A DNA stretch of 63,986 nucleotides, counting the filler, from an uncultured bacterium (GTDB lineage Bacteria > CAYJOG01): assembly GCA_964371695.1 (NCBI GenBank). It is 14 parts of 14 records of this genome, joined end to end, with 100 filler letters (N's around TTAATTAATTAA, not from the genome) between each part and the next. Parts side by side here need not be neighbours in the genome. Positions count along the whole stretch, not along the records: positions 14,174 to 18,765 come from CAYJOG010000278.1; 13 more parts are not named here. One strand, given 5' to 3'. Positions 8,003 through 18,765 of the stretch are shown here, piece by piece. The notes under the pieces were generated by a model. That model was not told the origin of the DNA, ran no database searches, and worked only from the letters and a program-made list of their open reading frames with translations. Within the stretch, counting starts at the first letter, position 1; each line of letters begins with the position of its first letter. A program made the translations under genes and the position numbers.

Positions 8003-9354
8003 ATGACCCTACGCGCTTTTTTCCGGCCCCTGGCCTTTCTGCTTTTGCTGGCCCTCTGGCCCGCCGCCCACGCCGCCCAAACCGTGGTGGAAATCATCGA
8101 ATACAGCGATTTCCAGTGCCCCTATTGTCACCGCGCCCAGCCCACCGTTGATCAGGTAATGGCCAAATATGGCGCGCAGGTCAAGTGGGAATACCGTCAC
8201 TTTCCCCTGGATTTTCACGCCGCCGCCCTGCCCGCCGCCGCCATTTCGGAATGCGCCCGCGACCAGGGCAAGTTCGAAGACGTACACGACGCGTTTTTTT
8301 CCATGAACCCCCAGACCATGAGCGAGACCTCGGTGATGACCGCCGCCAAGGCCAAGGTGCCAGACCCCGACGCGCTTGAGGCCTGTTACAAATCCGGCAA
8401 AAAACAGGAACTGGTGCTGGCCCAGATGAAAGAGGGACAGGCCAGGGGTGTGTCTGGCACGCCGGGGTTTTTCATCAACGGCAAGATGCTCTCTGGCGCA
8501 CAGCCCTTTGAGGTGTTTGACCGCATGATTTCGGTGGCGCTGGACCCCAGCAAGGGTGTGCCCCTTTATGTCATCACCCCCCCCGGCTGCCCCACCTGCG
8601 TGCCCGAAGACATGCTGAACGAACTTACCGGTCAGGTGCTGCAAGGGGCCGTGCGACAGGACGTGCCTTTTGAATCCCCCAAGGGCCGGGCGCTGATGGG
8701 TCAGTCCCAGGCCAAGGCGCTGCCCGTGGTGCTGCTGGGCAAGGAACTGGAGCAGGAGCCGGGCTTTCGGCAGATTGCCCGGTACGTCTCGCGCAAGGGC
8801 GAGTTGTATATGCTCAGCCCCACGCTGGCCCCGCCCACGCTGTTTCTGGAACCACTGCCCGCCTATTCCTTTGACCTGTTCATCGGCCCCAAAGGCGCGC
8901 CGGTGACCATTGTGGAATACACCGATTTTGTCTCGGACAGGGCCTCGGCGGTGAGCCGGGCGGTGATTGAGGTGATTCAGAAATACCCCGGCAAAATCAG
9001 GCACATCGTGCGGCCCGCCGCTGCGGGGGCCCAGGCGCTGGATCAAAGCCGCCTCATGGGTCAGGCGGCGTTCTGCCTTTCGCAGCAGGGCAAGTTCTGG
9101 AAGGGTTATCCCCTGCTCAGCCTCGCGGGGCCAAAAGCCACCCCGGCGGACCTGGAACGTCTGGCGGCGGACACCGGTGCGAAGGCTCCCGTTTTTCGGG
9201 AGTGTCTCAAGCAGCGGGACATGTTCAGCAACCGGGTGAAGGCCTATGGCCAGGACATGAGCACGCTGACCCTGCAACCGGGTGTGAACCTGTTTGTGGG
9301 CCGCCAGCGCCTGATGAACCCCAGCCTGTTTGACCTGTACCGCACCGTGGAAGG
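8003..9354 (+). CDS. DsbA/thioredoxin-fold protein with multiple Trx domains (3' truncated)
   Basis: Signal peptide, EYSDFQCPYC, GVSGTPGFFING, second CPTC, third degenerate EYTDF domain; AAGGAG RBS. Confidence 0.88.
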
Positions 9355-14073: not shown

Positions 14074-14234
14074 NNNNNNNNNNNNNNNNNNNNNNNNNNN
14101 NNNNNNNNNNNNNNNNNTTAATTAATTAANNNNNNNNNNNNNNNNNNNNNNNNNNNNNNNNNNNNNNNNNNNNATCTGACGACGGGAGAGGGTAAAGAGC
14201 GGCGGCTTTTCTTTTACCCTCTCCCCGCTTGGCC

Positions 14235-14346
14235 GGTTTTCGCCCACCCAGAGGGGCTTTGCCCCGATAGGCGGGGCCTGAAAAAGTCCAGGACGGACTT
14301 ATTCAAGGCCAACGAATTAGCAGGACGTTTATCAACACCCTGCTAA
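14235..14346. repeat. Degenerate right half of a family-B-like repeat followed by a family A remnant (14321..14342)
   Basis: GGTTTTCGCC..GGGGCTTTGCCCC..AAAAGTCCAGGACGGACTT, then TTAG-CAGG...TCAACACCCTG-CTAA. Confidence 0.6.
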
Positions 14347-14358
14347 AATAACCTTCAG

Positions 14359-15108
14359 GTGGTGGACAGGCTGACGGGTATCGGGGGAAGCGGCGTCCTG
14401 AAACATGGGCGGGGCATGGGGTGGATGGCCTGGATGGTCTTGGCTTTTTTTCTGGCCCTGCGCATCGGCGCACCGGCTTTGGCCCACCCCGGCCACGCCC
14501 ATCCCCCCAAGGACTTCTACAAAAACTTTGTCCCCATGTCCAAACCCATGCCCGCCGGCGCCAGCGCCCGGCTGAGTCAGGTGCTCAAACACATCCAGAC
14601 CGCCGACGTGGCGGGCCTGATGGCCGATTATCACCCCACCAATCCCCACGAAAAGCTGGATCAGACGCGGCAAATCTTCAGTCACCCCCTCACCCGCGCC
14701 ATGTTCCAGTCCATGCGCTACACCCCCCTTGCCTGGGAGCCAGGCCAGAACAAGGTGCGCGTGCGGCTGAAGGTGACACACCCCCACTGGCCCTTTCTGC
14801 AAAAGCTTTTCAGGGCTTTTTCAAAAATGGAGCACAAAAACAGCCTGGAGGCGCTGGACAAAAAAGCGTTGGTCACCGCCCTGCAAAAGGGAGACTACCC
14901 CAAGGCCAGCTCTGAAACCCTGCTGACGCTGGTGAAAGTGGGGGACAAATGGTTTACAATCACCCTGCCCCTCCCGGACATGGAAAAAAACCCCGGCCAC
15001 ACCAGTGGTGGCGCGCCCGAAAAAATGAAATCCCCACGCACCAAAGGTTCACCATCTTCAAAACAATCCCTCCCCTCTCCCCCCAATACACCCTCCAAAT
15101 CACCTTGA
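14359..15108 (+). CDS. Hypothetical exported protein (start may be 14416)
   Basis: Signal-like segment ending ALA-HPGHAH; Pro/Ser-rich tail. Confidence 0.7.
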   Translation: MVDRLTGIGGSGVLKHGRGMGWMAWMVLAFFLALRIGAPALAHPGHAHPPKDFYKNFVPMSKPMPAGASARLSQVLKHIQTADVAGLMADYHPTNPHEKLDQTRQIFSHPLTRAMFQSMRYTPLAWEPGQNKVRVRLKVTHPHWPFLQKLFRAFSKMEHKNSLEALDKKALVTALQKGDYPKASSETLLTLVKVGDKWFTITLPLPDMEKNPGHTSGGAPEKMKSPRTKGSPSSKQSLPSPPNTPSKSP

Positions 15109-15142
15109 TAGCCCCCTATCCCCAGGTGCAAAGGAGCCTCTC

Positions 15143-16480
15143 ATGAAAAAAAGCCCCAAAACCCGCGTCGCCGGGCTGGTCTTTTATGCCGCCGCCCTGA
15201 GCCTGCTGTTTTATGGTGTGGCGGGCCAGTCGGCAGAGGGCGGAGGCGCCATCACACCCATGCCCACCGGGGCCTACACCCCCCCGGCCATGTCCGCCGA
15301 TGGCCGCGCTACACCCGGTCTGGCCGAAAAACCCCTCTGGCTGAAAATCCAGAAACCGGGTTACCAGATTCTCCAGCCTTCTCCCCTGCGCTACACCAAG
15401 GGCCTGAACATGGAGTTCCTACGCACGATTCTGGAGGGCTTCGGCGCAGAAACACCAGAGGCCGGGCCAACTTTTAACGCCACCAGTTGCATGGCCTGCC
15501 ACAACCAGCCCGCCCCCGGCGGTCGGGGCACACCCGAATTGAAAGTGCTGTTTTTCATGCCCAATGTCCAGCCCCGGCCCGTGGCCCCCACCGTGTTCCG
15601 CCGTTTGGCCCGCGAAGGCCACCCCAGAATGGCCCTGCCCCCCAATCTGCTGGCCAAAGGTGAGCGCATCGCCCCGCCCCTGTTCACGCTGGGGGCCATG
15701 CTGCGGGTGCCCGCAGCGGCCATGCAAAAAGAGGTCGCACGGCAAAAGGGCCGCCCCACTGCGGGCGCGCTCAACTGGCTGCCGCCCGCCGCAGCGGGCG
15801 GGCCAAAACGCCTGGGGCGTCTGGGGCAAAAGTCCACACAACCCGACCTGACCTCCTTCATCCACTCGGCTTTTCTCAACGAAATGAGCGTGACCACCGG
15901 CCCCTTGGCCCAGCTCAACAAACAACCCGACAAAGACGGCGACGGCCTGGGCGAACCCGAAGTGGCCGAGCGCTACGTCATCATCATGCATTATCTGATC
16001 CAGAGCTTCATCCCCCCCTGGCGCTGGCCTCCTCACCCCGCCTGGAAAACCGGCCAGAAGCTGTTTCAGCAAACGGGCTGCGCCGCCTGCCACACCCCCA
16101 CACAACCCAACGCCAAGGGCAAACCGGTGACGCTTTACAGCGATCTGCTGCTGCACGACATGGGGCCGGGACTCTCGGACCACATGCCCGCTTTTGGGGC
16201 CAGCGCCAGCCAGTGGCGCACCACACCCCTGCTGGGACTGATTGGCGGCGGCCCCTATCTGCACGACGGCCGGGCCGCCACACTGCGGGAAGCCATCCTG
16301 GCCCACGGCGGCCAGGCCAAAACCTCGCGGGACCGCTTCGCCCACCTGAATAAAACCCAGCAGGAGGCCCTGGAGGGTTTTCTGAACAGCATCGTGCCCT
16401 GGCAGGCGGCCCCCAGCCGCCCCGCGCCACCCCCACCCTGGCACAACATGCCGCCCCCCAAACTGCCCCGTTTCAGGTGA
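15143..16480 (+). CDS. Di-heme oxidoreductase (DHOR) family protein
   Basis: GPTFNATSCMACH, GCAACHTP, YSDLLLHDMG, WRTTPL.G, YLHDGRA; AAGGAG RBS. Confidence 0.9.
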   Translation: MKKSPKTRVAGLVFYAAALSLLFYGVAGQSAEGGGAITPMPTGAYTPPAMSADGRATPGLAEKPLWLKIQKPGYQILQPSPLRYTKGLNMEFLRTILEGFGAETPEAGPTFNATSCMACHNQPAPGGRGTPELKVLFFMPNVQPRPVAPTVFRRLAREGHPRMALPPNLLAKGERIAPPLFTLGAMLRVPAAAMQKEVARQKGRPTAGALNWLPPAAAGGPKRLGRLGQKSTQPDLTSFIHSAFLNEMSVTTGPLAQLNKQPDKDGDGLGEPEVAERYVIIMHYLIQSFIPPWRWPPHPAWKTGQKLFQQTGCAACHTPTQPNAKGKPVTLYSDLLLHDMGPGLSDHMPAFGASASQWRTTPLLGLIGGGPYLHDGRAATLREAILAHGGQAKTSRDRFAHLNKTQQEALEGFLNSIVPWQAAPSRPAPPPPWHNMPPPKLPRFR

Positions 16481-16553
16481 CGCAAAACAGGGGGTTGGAA
16501 GTTGGAAGCGGGCCATTCCAATTCTCAACCGAAATAGCATTAACTCGGCTTAG

Positions 16554-16703
16554 CAGGGTGTTGATAAACACCCTGAAAAATCCATGGATGGATTTTACCG
16601 CTTGCAGGGGTTCCAAAAACCCCTGCAAAAGCGCCATTTTGCGAGAGCCTTGCTTGAGCAAAATGGGTTGAGAAAGGCCAGGAGGGACTTTCTCAACAAC
16701 CTG
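16554..16703 (+). mobile_element. MITE family A, 150 nt, TTAG target duplication
   Basis: TIRs CAGGGTGTTGATAAA / TTTCTCAACAACCTG, TTAG on both flanks; near-identical to 41675..41824. Confidence 0.85.
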
Positions 16704-16762
16704 TTAGAGCACTTTCGGAATTGGTGAATCATGCATCGTCTGAAAGCCCCGCCCTGGCTGGC

Positions 16763-16865
16763 GTCATTCCCGCGAAAGCGGGAATCCAGTCAAAACATAA
16801 AAACAAAAGGTTTTTTGACCTTATTCCTTACAAAAACACTGGATTCCCGCTTTCGCGGGAATGAC
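16763..16865. repeat. Inverted pair of GTCATTCCCGCGAAAGCGGGAATCCAG hairpins (family C)
   Basis: Exact inverted copies separated by an AT-rich spacer; further copies at 30852, 39266/39463, 41960. Confidence 0.9.
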
Positions 16866-17013
16866 GGTGGAGAAAACGCGGAATGACGGTGGAGAACAAC
16901 GGAAGCTTTTTCTCCTACCAGCTTCCAGTCTCCAGTTCCTTCCCCGCCGTCACCCGCTCTGCCCGCCTGTGTTACAATCAAACGCTGGCTTTGGCCACAG
17001 AAGCGGGACACAG

Positions 17014-17721
17014 GTGAAAAAACTGGCCTCAACCAAAGGCTTTCTACTGGTGGGTATCCTGTTCACCACCATGGCGCTGCTGATCGGGGCCTACGCCAGT
17101 GTGTTGAGCATGCAGGTGTCGGGCCGGGCCATCCGCAACCGCATGTTGGTGTTGCACGCCCGCCTGGGGGCGGAAAGCGCCATCGAGGCCGCCATCCGCA
17201 AACTCAACGATAGCTCGGCTCTGGAGACCTATGGCACCGGCGGCACGCAGAACGACTGCGACGGCACCGCCGCCGCCGTGAACGACGCGCCGGTGCTCTC
17301 GGCCGGCACCTATCTGGTCGAGGCCATTTCTGATTCCAGCACCATCACGGATGTTTACAAGGTGAACTGGGGTGTGAACATGGACCTCAGCGCCTCGCTG
17401 CTGCTTTCGCAATCGCAGTGGGTGGCCGACGCCGCCAACCGCAGCAACGCCGGTTATCCCGATCACGGCGTGGGCAGCAATGTCTACAGCACCAGCGCCA
17501 ACGCCACGGGTTATATGGCCAAATGCCTCACCCGCACCAGCCAGCGGTTGTTGCGGGCCGAGGCCAACGTGGTGAAGGTGGGTTATGAAACCGCCCAGCC
17601 CGCCATCACGCGGCGGGTGGCCGCCATTGTGGTGATTGACCCGCTCTGCTCCGAGCCGGGCAGCGGCGTGCCGCCTTTTCCGGGTTGTCAAGTGGAGGTG
17701 GTGCATTGGTACGAGGAATGA
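17014..17721 (+). CDS. PilX/GspK-like minor pilin
   Basis: KKLASTKG|FLLVGILF leader without Glu5; ARLGAESAIEAAI; overlaps the next pilin (ATGA). Confidence 0.75.
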   Translation: MKKLASTKGFLLVGILFTTMALLIGAYASVLSMQVSGRAIRNRMLVLHARLGAESAIEAAIRKLNDSSALETYGTGGTQNDCDGTAAAVNDAPVLSAGTYLVEAISDSSTITDVYKVNWGVNMDLSASLLLSQSQWVADAANRSNAGYPDHGVGSNVYSTSANATGYMAKCLTRTSQRLLRAEANVVKVGYETAQPAITRRVAAIVVIDPLCSEPGSGVPPFPGCQVEVVHWYEE

Positions 17722-18605
17722 AAAAACTGTCGCGCCTGAGAGCCTGTTTTAAAATCAGGGCATGTGAAACATGGTCTGATTTTAAGCAGGCTCTCGCGGT
17801 CATGAGTTTGCGAGGAGTCTTTCCAGATGCCCATTGGGGCATCTGGCCGAGCAAAGGCGATAGCGACCGCATCCGAAAGCCGAAGCTTTGTAAAAGCGGA
17901 GGTTTTCGCCCCGCAAGGGGGCTTCGCCCCCGCCAGCGGGTGGTTTTAAAAGTCCAGGACGGACTTTTAAAACAAGCTCTGAGGGGCTTCACACTCATTG
18001 AGTTGGTCATCGTGATTGTCATCATGGTGGCGATCATTGCCATTGGTGCGGTGCGCTGGCAGTCGCCCGACACATTGCGCAGCGAGGCCCTGGCCCAGCA
18101 GCTCAAGGAATATCTGGTGCGCGGGCCTGACCGCAGCAAAGGTTCGCCCTTTGGCGTGGTGCTGGTCATCCGCAACCCCGCCAACCTGCCCGCGCCGCCC
18201 AATCATCAGATGCTCTCTTTTCAGGAATACGCCGACACCACCCGCACCACGCTTGACAGTCCCTTTCCCACCGAGGTGGTCTATAACTCCGAGAGCGACA
18301 TCGCCATCAGTTCTTCTTTCGCCACCATTCCCTCGGCCACCACCACCGTGGTGTTCCGCACCAACGGTTTGGTGGAAAGTCCCATGCAGACCACGGGCGG
18401 TGCCCCCACCGGCTCCTTTGACATCCTCGTGAACAGCGTGCGGCTGCACAAGGTGGTGTTCTCGCCCGCCAGCGGCAGCGCCGTGGTGCAGGTGTGCGCC
18501 GCCGTGGGCAGCGGCACCCCCGGCGCGCAAGAGGGTGGCTGTCCCAACAAGGCCAGCGGCTGGTGCGACTCCGACAACCCACAGGAGGATTGCCTGCTGC
18601 CATGA
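17718..18605 (+). CDS. Type IV prepilin (FimT/GspH-like) with an in-frame 81-aa MITE insertion in the leader
   Basis: MKKLSRL[81 aa]RG|FTLIELVIVIVI; C-terminal cysteines. Confidence 0.85.
   Translation: MKKLSRLRACFKIRACETWSDFKQALAVMSLRGVFPDAHWGIWPSKGDSDRIRKPKLCKSGGFRPARGLRPRQRVVLKVQDGLLKQALRGFTLIELVIVIVIMVAIIAIGAVRWQSPDTLRSEALAQQLKEYLVRGPDRSKGSPFGVVLVIRNPANLPAPPNHQMLSFQEYADTTRTTLDSPFPTEVVYNSESDIAISSSFATIPSATTTVVFRTNGLVESPMQTTGGAPTGSFDILVNSVRLHKVVFSPASGSAVVQVCAAVGSGTPGAQEGGCPNKASGWCDSDNPQEDCLLP
17740..17979 (+). mobile_element. MITE family B, 240 nt, TGA duplication, intragenic
   Basis: TIRs GAGCCTGTTTTAAAA / TTTTAAAACAAGCTC; TGA at 17737-17739 and 17980-17982. Confidence 0.9.
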
Positions 18606-18765
18606 AGCTGAAATCCACACACCGCCGCAGGGGTTTTACGCTCATCGAAATGGTGATCGCCATGATTCTCATTGGCATCGCCCTGTTGCCCCTGGCGAGC
18701 GTGGCCCCGCTGGCGGCCATGGAGCAGGTGCGTCACGACCGCCTTGAGCGGGCGCTGGTCACCGC
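18602..18765 (+). CDS. PilV-like prepilin (3' truncated)
   Basis: MKLKSTHRRRG|FTLIEMVIAMILIGIALL. Confidence 0.85.

Follow-up and report, generated by a model that had tools for sequence, protein, structure and literature searches.

A MITE lying in frame in the leader of a prepilin-type gene, and its relatives in other leader regions

The leader of a minor pilin gene has received an IS5-type MITE at a TGA shared by codons 7 and 8, and the TGA has been duplicated. With one TGA included, the 240-nt element amounts to 243 nt, i.e., 81 codons, and it lies in frame between MKKLSRL and RG/FTLIE (the slash marks the cleavage site), just as a sequence-only reading of this DNA had described. The in-frame MITE is real, and its family has a recurrent preference for leader regions. 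The explanation that we consider probable is that ribosomes beginning at the native start would read through the element, that the long leader would be cut off and the mature pilin left unchanged, and that the same logic would hold for the other leader copies. It seems that selfish DNA can be tolerated in leaders that are removed.

'The window' is here the whole stretch of DNA that was analysed, 63,986 nucleotides in which contigs of one MAG (3.43 Mb in 672 contigs, 83% complete) are chained via N runs; the locus is on contig C278, which corresponds to positions 14174-18765 of the window (Table 1).

The gene, the insertion and its empty sites

Is the host really a pilin gene? Its product matches PF07963 N_methyl (21.8 bits, cut-off 21.2) and, at residues 89-110, TIGR02532 (21.7, cut-off 16.3); the G/F-x-x-x-E with hydrophobic helix of type IV prepilins is present, and the cleavage site agrees at every motif position with the pattern given in an excerpt of PMC8578077. 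Prepilin leaders are called short in that excerpt, and no precedent for one of 88-90 residues was found in the literature; the short basic leader is what the present allele lacks. The ORF upstream, PilX-like by position only, matched no Pfam or NCBIfam family. The ATG of the pilin gene (17718-17720) lies on its TGA (17719-17721), as had been claimed, and four codons 5' of this ATG is an in-frame TTG to which the spacing from GGAGG is 7 nt. Overlap of this kind also joins the next pilin gene, whose ATG (18602) overlaps the stop of the insertion-bearing gene.

Table 1. Features of the locus (positions in the window)
Feature	Position	Strand	Basis or remark
Upstream ORF, 'PilX-like' by position only	16861..17721	+	stop TGA 17719-17721 overlaps pilin ATG
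Native translation start region	17694..17720	+	GGAGG 17694-17698, in-frame TTG 17706-17708, ATG 17718-17720
Prepilin-type gene with insertion (minor pilin or pseudopilin-like)	17718..18605	+	R-G/F-T-L-I-E from 17982
Left TGA, 3-bp target duplication	17737..17739		sequence; 3-letter ambiguity at empty-site joint agrees
Composite insertion: five-hairpin MITE with nested 60-nt module	17740..17979	+	repeat search, alignment, folding
Hairpin 1: left terminal inverted repeat paired with its own internal copy	17740..17793	+	repeats, alignment, fold
Hairpin 2 of MITE	17796..17870	+	stem arms 17796-17801 / 17865-17870; loop houses nested module
Nested 60-nt module 'B'	17805..17864	+	separate repeat, also in GC-rich hairpin loops elsewhere in genome
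Hairpins 3, 4 and 5 of MITE	17874..17974	+	alignment, fold
Right TGA, 3-bp target duplication	17980..17982		sequence; empty-site joint
Next prepilin-type gene, 11-aa leader	18602..18765	+	PF07963 37.6 bits; cut by contig end

The element had been taken for a single 240-nt unit, and that view has to be given up, as it is a composite of a MITE of the 183-nt type and a 60-nt module, here called module B. Inverted ends are present as proposed, though over the 15 bp claimed they agree at 14 positions (read by eye), and a repeat search with the flanks included gave 23-nt arms that are 87% complementary. The RNA fold of the 240 nt reaches -129.1 kcal/mol (z -10.2) and the DNA fold -76 kcal/mol (z -11.3); the array of hairpins starts about 20 nt past the ATG and could impede initiation or terminate. 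An open-frame check agreed that both strands are stop-free in the phase of the gene, and a hand count of residues in the insert peptide gave about 18 Lys+Arg and 6 Asp+Glu. There is an in-frame ATG at 17802, within hairpin 2, and an in-frame GTG at 17940, within hairpin 4, with no start codon between the element and the Gly/Phe site. An Rfam search of the window returned nothing for element or module at E <=10, its only yield being tRNA elsewhere in the window.

Since a genome search gave no relative closer than the same domain, orthologs were taken from a protein collection and from sequencing runs. The ortholog P0002 begins MKKLSRLRGFTLIE, i.e., it has the leader without the insert, and after the leader it is identical to the pilin at 185 of 209 positions (88-89%). 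An equally long leader in orthologs, which had been named as something that would count against an insertion, was not what was encountered, for 88-93 residues precede the Gly-Phe in the present allele and 9 in P0002, the ancestral state. At the nucleotide level, a 2217-nt contig from run X5 joins 17735 to 17979 and so skips exactly 243 nt, with 3 ambiguous letters, while in a 1439-nt contig from run X6 the stretch 17726-17980 is absent with 10 other letters in its place. That removal of the element restores the leader is borne out both by P0002 and by the X5 contig. Target duplication is thus accompanied by empty sites in relatives, namely the 243-nt skip and two orthologs without inserts, P0002 and, for another host gene considered below, P0008.

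The family and its copies in genes

BLASTN of the element against the genome gave 204 places, and nhmmer 239 hits, which merge to 171 loci, far more than chance would produce. The modal length is 183 nt, or 240 nt with the nested module, and no long ORF is contained in it. The ends begin with GAG, the inverted ends are conserved across 33 aligned copies, complete copies are bounded by 3-bp TNA duplications, and among aligned copies the five hairpins covary between subfamilies. Small transposase-free size, terminal inverted repeats and many dispersed copies are what characterise a bacterial MITE, and TNA duplication with GAG-starting ends is characteristic of the IS5 family (IS427/IS1031 group), so that the original proposal of a MITE with these features is borne out. 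IS copies are often missing from MAGs, and in this 83%-complete one there were 0 matches to each of PF01609, PF13359, PF13586 and PF13340, with which IS5-type transposase was sought. The suggested likeness to IS1031 and IS427 stands for the GAG start of the ends and for the duplication, which fit the relevant part of PMC2516522, and finds no counterpart in a transposase in the MAG. An exact 27-mer from the commonest right-hand MITE hairpin had 0 matches in metagenome contigs.

Is the family then a coding-compatible one, as had also been proposed? Weakly so. It is mostly intergenic and not generally ORF-like. In-frame copies in real genes, judged by family hits or long coding flanks, are found at 9 of 120 evaluable loci, and of the frames in 53 full copies 28% are open, versus 19% in a Markov simulation, with at most 20 of the 53 open in any one phase and 13 in that of the pilin gene. 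Neither a large in-ORF share nor an open frame conserved family-wide, both of which mark RPE-like repeats, is seen.

The distribution of the nine is another matter. Six are at N-terminal leaders, between start codon and hydrophobic core, and their hosts are this pilin, an SLH protein (C66), a phosphonate-binding-like protein (C248), a FadL-like protein (C377), a Porin_5 protein (C617) and a gene on C64. The other three are in cytoplasmic or membrane proteins: GlnE, the central loop of an MFS protein and a PD-(D/E)XK nuclease. Signal peptides were called by eye and protein family, and the screen for leader insertions sees open frames only, being blind to those that destroyed genes; among the family loci screened no out-of-frame mid-gene insertion was detected. 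For the C66 gene, whose insert amounts to 62 residues, the ortholog P0008, 87% identical, has a normal 25-aa signal peptide and no insert, and a slightly different version of the insert allele in the protein collection, P0007, is still open. For C248 the closest insert-free relatives are 51-53% identical. The notion of the leader as a 'safe harbour' gains support from these five further in-frame leader copies, one of them with its empty-site ortholog.

Proposed start, read-through and cleavage

Where would translation of the enlarged gene begin? The native start would stay upstream, at either TTG 17706 with its GGAGG or ATG 17718 overlapping the upstream stop, and ribosomes initiating there would read across the hairpin array. 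The product would be a prepilin with an Arg/Lys-rich leader of about 90 residues, which under the positive-inside rule would be kept cytoplasmic, and prepilin peptidase would cut at the unaltered R-G/F-T-L-I-E site. Cleavage at an unchanged site would yield a mature pilin no different from that made before the MITE arrived, and the insertion would thus be nearly neutral. For the five further copies the same logic would apply, placed as they are between the start and the hydrophobic core of Sec-type exported-protein leaders. Native start is favoured because the Shine-Dalgarno at the TTG and the ATGA overlap have nothing comparable at ATG 17802 or GTG 17940.

The alternative that survives best, though we think it unlikely, is that the element itself donates the start codon and translation begins inside it, at ATG 17802 (leader of about 62 aa) or at GTG 17940 (16 aa, which falls within the known prepilin range); element-encoded residues would even so be in the removed leader. 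Both codons are in frame, and the gene caller did pick ATG 17802 (P0001), with an equivalent choice in C248 (P0003), but at neither candidate does the Shine-Dalgarno exceed a 3-mer, and both are in stems of strong hairpins. In the C66, C377, C617 and C248 genes a start codon precedes the element by 6-8 codons and has AGGAG or GGAGG 6-8 nt to its 5' side. In the first three, where the copies are in minus orientation, the internal in-frame starts are GTGs only, and these are without Shine-Dalgarno, whereas good Shine-Dalgarno-start pairs are found just 5' of the element. With internal starts the part 5' of them need not be open, yet it is open in six of six, a weak argument given that the screen required openness.

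Might the insertion instead have silenced or killed the gene, either through hairpins that block translation or terminate transcription, or through a leader too long to be inserted into the membrane or cleaved? The open frame would then only attest that the event was recent and the minor pilin dispensable. We think this unlikely as well, slightly more so than internal initiation. With a perfect duplication, and ends that disagree at one position in 15, the event may be young, but the 206-aa mature part is intact, 89% identical to that of P0002 with 94% positives and mostly conservative changes. About one phase in three is open by chance, and this phase is open in the 13 of 53 full copies mentioned; however, the in-frame arrangement recurs in five exported-protein genes as well as in GlnE, the MFS loop and the PD-(D/E)XK nuclease, and the lack of any out-of-frame intragenic copy is the pattern expected if frame-breakers were purged and these were tolerated. 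Prepilin peptidase (Peptidase_A24, PF01478) had 0 matches in the 83%-complete MAG, which has eight N_methyl genes, and this tells against the proposed cleavage and for a dead pilin. The downstream pilin gene is coupled by start/stop overlap and so a block would be polar.

That a repeat-induced mis-join in assembly put a MITE between two gene halves is very improbable, for although many of the 672 contigs end in MITE repeats (51 of the 171 loci are at contig edges) and the whole element is in none of the Logan contigs listed, the ortholog's contig has the two flanks directly adjoining, a mis-join would demand a MITE end at the exact site on both sides, and, among independent 100%-identical contigs from runs X1 and X2 (17509-17830, 17855-17927, 17930-18051 and 17930-18500), those covering 17509-17830 and 17930-18500 carry copy-specific MITE sequence across the two junctions, which answers the earlier concern that these might not be spanned.

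The nested module

Module B gave 75 nhmmer hits in the genome, of which 58 are close to full length; flanks were available for 54. In four composite copies it is identical at 60 of 60 positions, while identity of their MITE parts is 74-88% and 79-82%. It takes the place of 3 loop bases of MITE hairpin 2; a MITE without the module has there a 3-base loop core, as seen where a contig joins 17804 to 17865 with 3 letters between. Its hosts are the loops of REP-like hairpins as well as the second hairpin of the MITE. There are no inverted ends and no target duplication, the module always points the same way with respect to the REP head, and it folds into two stems of its own, in which changes between two subfamilies are paired. 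It could have been gained either before or after the MITE landed in the pilin gene.

Exact scans with a 42-mer against metagenome contigs and a 35-mer against viral contigs gave 0 matches each. A degenerate 19-mer with three ambiguous letters matched at least 76 loci in unrelated taxa among genome contigs, and these were put down to chance: the match to the module profile was limited to the pattern itself and none had a match to the MITE. A longer parent element was considered and rejected, as no pair of the 17 partial hits flanks one on a single contig; 15 of them are no more than about 40 nt away from the end of a contig and the others are at C162:4370-4406 and C64:153-184. No description of a comparable 60-nt loop module was found in a non-exhaustive literature search. 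The genome encodes RAYT-like Y1 transposases.

A broader proposal, which we put forward tentatively and hold less firmly than read-through at the pilin gene, is that leaders are the MITE's preferred intragenic niche, with ribosomes reading through and the extensions discarded, and that module B is an undescribed mobile unit, perhaps RAYT-driven. Prepilin leaders would belong to this niche, and so would the positively charged stretch with which Sec signal peptides begin, with basic extensions of 60-90 residues, made through an array of -129 kcal/mol, that may go with the leader. Module B may enter or replace the loops of REP and MITE hairpins, always in one orientation and with neither inverted ends nor target duplication, and an enzyme specific for ssDNA hairpins, e.g., the RAYT-like Y1 transposases of this genome, might drive it.

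Implications

In-frame MITEs were already known, and N-terminal cases have usually been put down to wrong start calls. Here two empty-site orthologs show that insertions truly separate the start codon from the functional part of a leader, and there are six occurrences of the pattern in one genome. This makes testable the idea that selfish DNA within genes comes at the lowest price in those protein segments that are later removed. If the broader proposal above is right, selfish DNA can persist almost free of cost in essential genes for exported proteins. There is a practical side, as gene callers choose false internal starts (P0001 and P0003) and predictors of signal peptides and pilins will miss such genes. 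The 60-nt loop-seeking module, and the layering of repeat on repeat, hint at possible mechanisms of mobility at DNA hairpins.

Comparison with known systems

Literature on a MITE in a prepilin leader peptide was not found, and for in-frame bacterial MITEs in signal peptides none of the papers listed was on topic by title or abstract. What comes nearest? Rickettsia palindromic elements (RPE) are said, in summaries given by later papers, to have been reported by Ogata et al. in 2000. They are in frame in functional genes according to portions of PMC10969869 and PMC3733652, and in the latter portion RPE-1 N-terminal decorations are reportedly expressed. Like them, as they appear in those portions, the present family consists of small palindromic repeats that are in frame and add tens of residues. 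However, about half of the copies in some RPE families are there described as within ORFs and as encoding a conserved peptide, in contrast to 9 of 120 and 28% open frames here, and the present family has classic inverted ends with TNA duplication and in-gene copies that cluster in cleavable leaders.

As to origin, the portion of PMC2516522 that deals with IS1237 gives it GAG-starting ends and TTA/TAA duplication, and describes an insertion site of three nucleotides as a trait common to the IS1031 group. IS5-derived MITEs, as exemplified there by IS1237, share with this family the GAG start, the 3-bp TNA duplication, small size, non-coding nature and multiple copies, but the ends are alike in the first bases only and the body here is a five-hairpin array.

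REP/ERIC/BOX-type repeats are often at the 5' ends of ORFs, with in-frame fusions described, in portions of PMC3733652 and PMC10969869, and the same portions warn that most N-terminal repeat cases may be mis-annotated starts. The difference is that two empty-site orthologs, together with the upstream Shine-Dalgarno-start pairs, place the insertion inside a coding leader here.

For module B the parallels are elements that go to hairpins. IS elements insert into REPs, and REPs occur within small palindromes, as recounted in part of PMC3733652, while the 'small mobile repeats' of Haloquadratum, in the corresponding part of PMC3119063, attack elements that carry palindromes and have no target duplications. 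On those accounts module B resembles hairpin-targeting elements in being seated in hairpin loops without target duplication; it differs in being just 60 nt, in having no inverted ends, in replacing about 3 loop bases and in having a two-stem fold of its own.

An in-frame insertion in a prepilin leader

The window of 63,986 bases strings together contigs of a single MAG, with stretches of N between them. The MAG totals 3.43 Mb over 672 contigs (61% G+C, 83% complete), and the pilin locus is on its contig C278 (window 14174-18765). That a MITE sits there in frame between MKKLSRL and RG|FTLIE, as a sequence-only reading had it, is borne out by a target duplication, by inverted-repeat ends agreeing at 14 of 15 positions and by an empty site, and the insertion is real and well documented. 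With one TGA the 240-nt element amounts to 243 nt, and the phase of the pilin gene through it is stop-free on both strands. Transposition into the leader duplicated the TGA, kept the frame and left the native start region and cleavage motif intact, the insertion point being two codons ahead of the cleavage site. The prepilin N-methylation motif of the gene scores above curated cut-offs in a profile search, the cleavage site matches a motif quoted in a passage of PMC8578077, and the downstream neighbour is another prepilin-type gene, its ATG overlapping the stop of the MITE-bearing one. Further 5′, before the PilX-like ORF, short overlapping ORFs on both strands of window 16731-17032 encode mirror-like peptides, which suggests another palindromic repeat.

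What is the gene like without its insertion? With the mature part of the pilin as query, two proteins were matched in a collection of 5.8 billion: P0001, which is the gene call of the MITE-bearing gene itself with its start at ATG 17802, and P0002, of 215 aa, which begins MKKLSRLRGFTLIE, so restoring the leader, and is then identical to the window pilin at 185 of 209 positions. Contigs from public sequencing runs were also aligned to the locus; among the runs found to contain it there was no RNA run. One of 2217 nt from X5, a groundwater run of another study, is ~90% identical, joins 17735 to 17979 and omits exactly 243 nt, the 3-letter ambiguity at the joint corresponding to the TGA duplication; a 1439-nt contig from run X6 omits 17726-17980 and shows 10 other letters in their place. 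Sediment runs X1 and X2 yielded contigs 100% identical to the locus over the left junction (17509-17830) and over the right one (17930-18051 and 17930-18500), and none with the empty site. Each junction is thereby spanned, though the interior is backed piecewise, including by 17855-17927, and none among the listed contigs covers the whole element.

Features of the pilin locus (window coordinates), transposase genes and in-gene MITE insertions (contigs, C, of the source MAG, G000)
Feature	Location	Remark
Pilin ATG	17718-17720	Overlaps stop of upstream ORF at 17719-17721
Leader start MKKLSRL	Seven codons from ATG 17718	Before left TGA
Target duplication TGA	Left 17737-17739, right 17980-17982	Flanks element
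Element, 240 nt	17740-17979	Between two TGA copies
R-G-F-T-L-I-E	Directly after element and right TGA	Cleavage region of pilin
RAYT-like Y1 transposase genes	G000 C29:3350-3580, C53:1660-1863, C11:6361-6576
Leader insertion	C278	Prepilin-type gene
Leader insertion	C66	SLH-domain protein
Leader insertion	C248	Phosphonate-binding-like periplasmic protein
Leader insertion	C377	FadL/TodX-like, weak match
Leader insertion	C617	Porin_5
Leader insertion	C64	No family matched
Internal insertion	C285	Central loop of MFS transporter
Internal insertion	C38	GlnE
Internal insertion	C18	PD-(D/E)XK nuclease

The family and its nested module

BLASTN with the element found 204 places in the source genome, and a profile from 33 copies gave 239 hits, which fall into 171 loci, including 54 at full length. 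When copies are aligned, five hairpins follow one another, and paired changes at many places separate the subfamilies; 183 nt is the commonest length, found in 27 among 53 full copies, and the triplets flanking complete copies are TGA, TAA, TCA or TTA. Folded as RNA, the copy in the pilin gene is predicted to reach -129 kcal/mol (z -10); the value for DNA is -76 kcal/mol (z -11). Three copies (C253:~143, C71:~6431, C284:~2387) occupy the middle three bases (TGA or TCA) of a perfect palindrome of 23 nt, itself a repeat with 148 matches over both strands, or ~74 sites; here mobile DNA is lodged within the loop of another repeat. A second pilin gene cluster, at C46:7596-8764, has three N_methyl genes and three intergenic MITE copies or fragments, one of which (8583-8764), beginning directly after a pilin stop, lacks the 60-nt module and at 92-96% identity is the closest relative of the window MITE.

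The 240 nt had been taken as a single element; it is instead a composite of the MITE and a separate 60-nt module at 17805-17864. Profile matches to the module number 75 in the genome, 58 being near full length, and in the 54 that could be printed with flanks (C8:5294, C85:5463 and C53:2155 among them) short GC-rich inverted-repeat arms enclose it. It is carried by several REP-like families whose head is of the GTAG type, by the second hairpin of the MITE, and by others. Alignment of MITE copies lacking it gives three bases at its position, and a contig joint from 17804 to 17865 has 3 letters between. It replaces ~3 loop bases, has neither inverted ends nor target duplication, and points one way only with respect to the REP head. 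There are two internal stems, and paired changes in the main one set two subfamilies apart. Nothing resembling it was found in Rfam. In the four composite copies the modules are identical at 60/60, but identity between their MITE parts is no more than 74-88% and 79-82%; the module therefore entered diverged copies separately and recently, or spread by conversion. Its depth in X5 is ~900 times that of the flanks. One of three RAYT-like Y1 transposase genes has a module-bearing REP ~300 nt away. This loop-seeking module is a point of further interest.

Several GTAG-headed REP families are abundant, with motif counts over both strands of 28 to 148, and just 3′ of the RAYT-like gene on C53 stand an empty and a module-filled REP. 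At C381:258-385 and C271:3696-3875 are chimeric repeats, the module flanked by MITE on one side and REP on the other, as if module copies recombine with each other. At C566:1049-1287 a composite MITE that is open in the murA frame directly precedes the start codon of murA and is probably part of the 5′ UTR.

Leaders as recurrent sites, and their proposed readout

Sixteen flagged loci and one more were compared with Pfam. Among these 17 are the nine in-gene insertions: three lie within the protein body, and six, by a screen that counts open insertions and is blind to leader insertions with a closed frame, lie in an N-terminal leader, after the start codon and ahead of the hydrophobic core. Four of the eight other loci have their own start downstream, which makes them 5′ UTR insertions, and the other four are ambiguous. 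The six share one phase, in either orientation, and by hand count the leader-phase peptides are strongly basic (~+12 for the pilin, ~+11 for C66); the GlnE insertion is in another phase and its peptide is acidic (~-4). The C66 ortholog P0008, 87% identical, lacks the insert and its signal peptide is normal, and relatives of the C248 protein, only 51-53% identical, have ordinary short signal peptides. Such recurrent use of cleavable leaders is of further interest.

How might the pilin gene be read? Ribosomes would begin at the native start and read across the hairpins, the basic leader of ~90 residues would stay on the cytoplasmic side, and prepilin peptidase would cut it off, leaving the mature pilin unchanged. 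Against this read-through and removal counts the search for a Peptidase_A24 gene, none being found in the 83%-complete MAG. One main rival is loss of pilin-gene function. The other main rival is initiation inside the element: gene callers placed the starts of P0001 and P0003 at an ATG in the second MITE hairpin, 17802 in the pilin gene. In-element starts, that one included, nevertheless lack comparable Shine-Dalgarno sites, and the native sites are upstream of the element: AGGAG or GGAGG stands 6-8 nt before the start codon, 6-8 codons ahead of the MITE, at C66, C377, C617 and C248, and in the pilin gene GGAGG is followed at 7 nt by an in-frame TTG, which precedes the ATG by four codons. The automatic calls would then hide the native start and give false N-termini; P0007, the C66 call, does read from the upstream ATG across the MITE. 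The notion of the leader as a safe harbour gains from six in-frame leader insertions, two with insert-free orthologs, though removal of the leader is a step that we infer.

Coding compatibility of the family

With a codon-usage model trained on long ORFs of the same genome, 120 of the 171 loci were evaluable, 51 at contig ends being excluded. At 104 of the 120 no frame continues through the element to reach coding sequence, at 15 one runs open into the gene downstream, and one locus is a clear mid-gene read-through; the screen detected no out-of-frame mid-gene insertion in the source genome. Open frames make up 28% of six frames over 53 full copies versus 19% in Markov simulation, and the family, taken from sequence to be coding-compatible, is only weakly so. 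Five of 13 genes running into a MITE end exactly at its edge, the target TNA having been their stop codon. Genome-wide, TAA and TGA stops serve as TNA targets.

Relation to known elements

The proposed likeness to the IS427/IS1031 group of the IS5 family holds, as GAG-starting ends and a 3-bp TNA-type duplication are what PMC2516522, in Table 1 and the text, gives for IS1237 of that group. An IS5-type transposase was sought in the 83%-complete MAG with PF01609, PF13359, PF13586 and PF13340, and all four returned 0 matches, which is not decisive for an incomplete MAG. In the literature search no paper connected MITEs with prepilin leaders and, among the few matches examined, none connected them with signal peptides. 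REPs at ORF N-termini are noted in PMC3733652, which cautions that many such cases are mistakes of annotation. That MITEs and RPEs occur in frame within genes is established (PMC10969869), and the pilin MITE resembles them in being an in-frame insertion in a gene.
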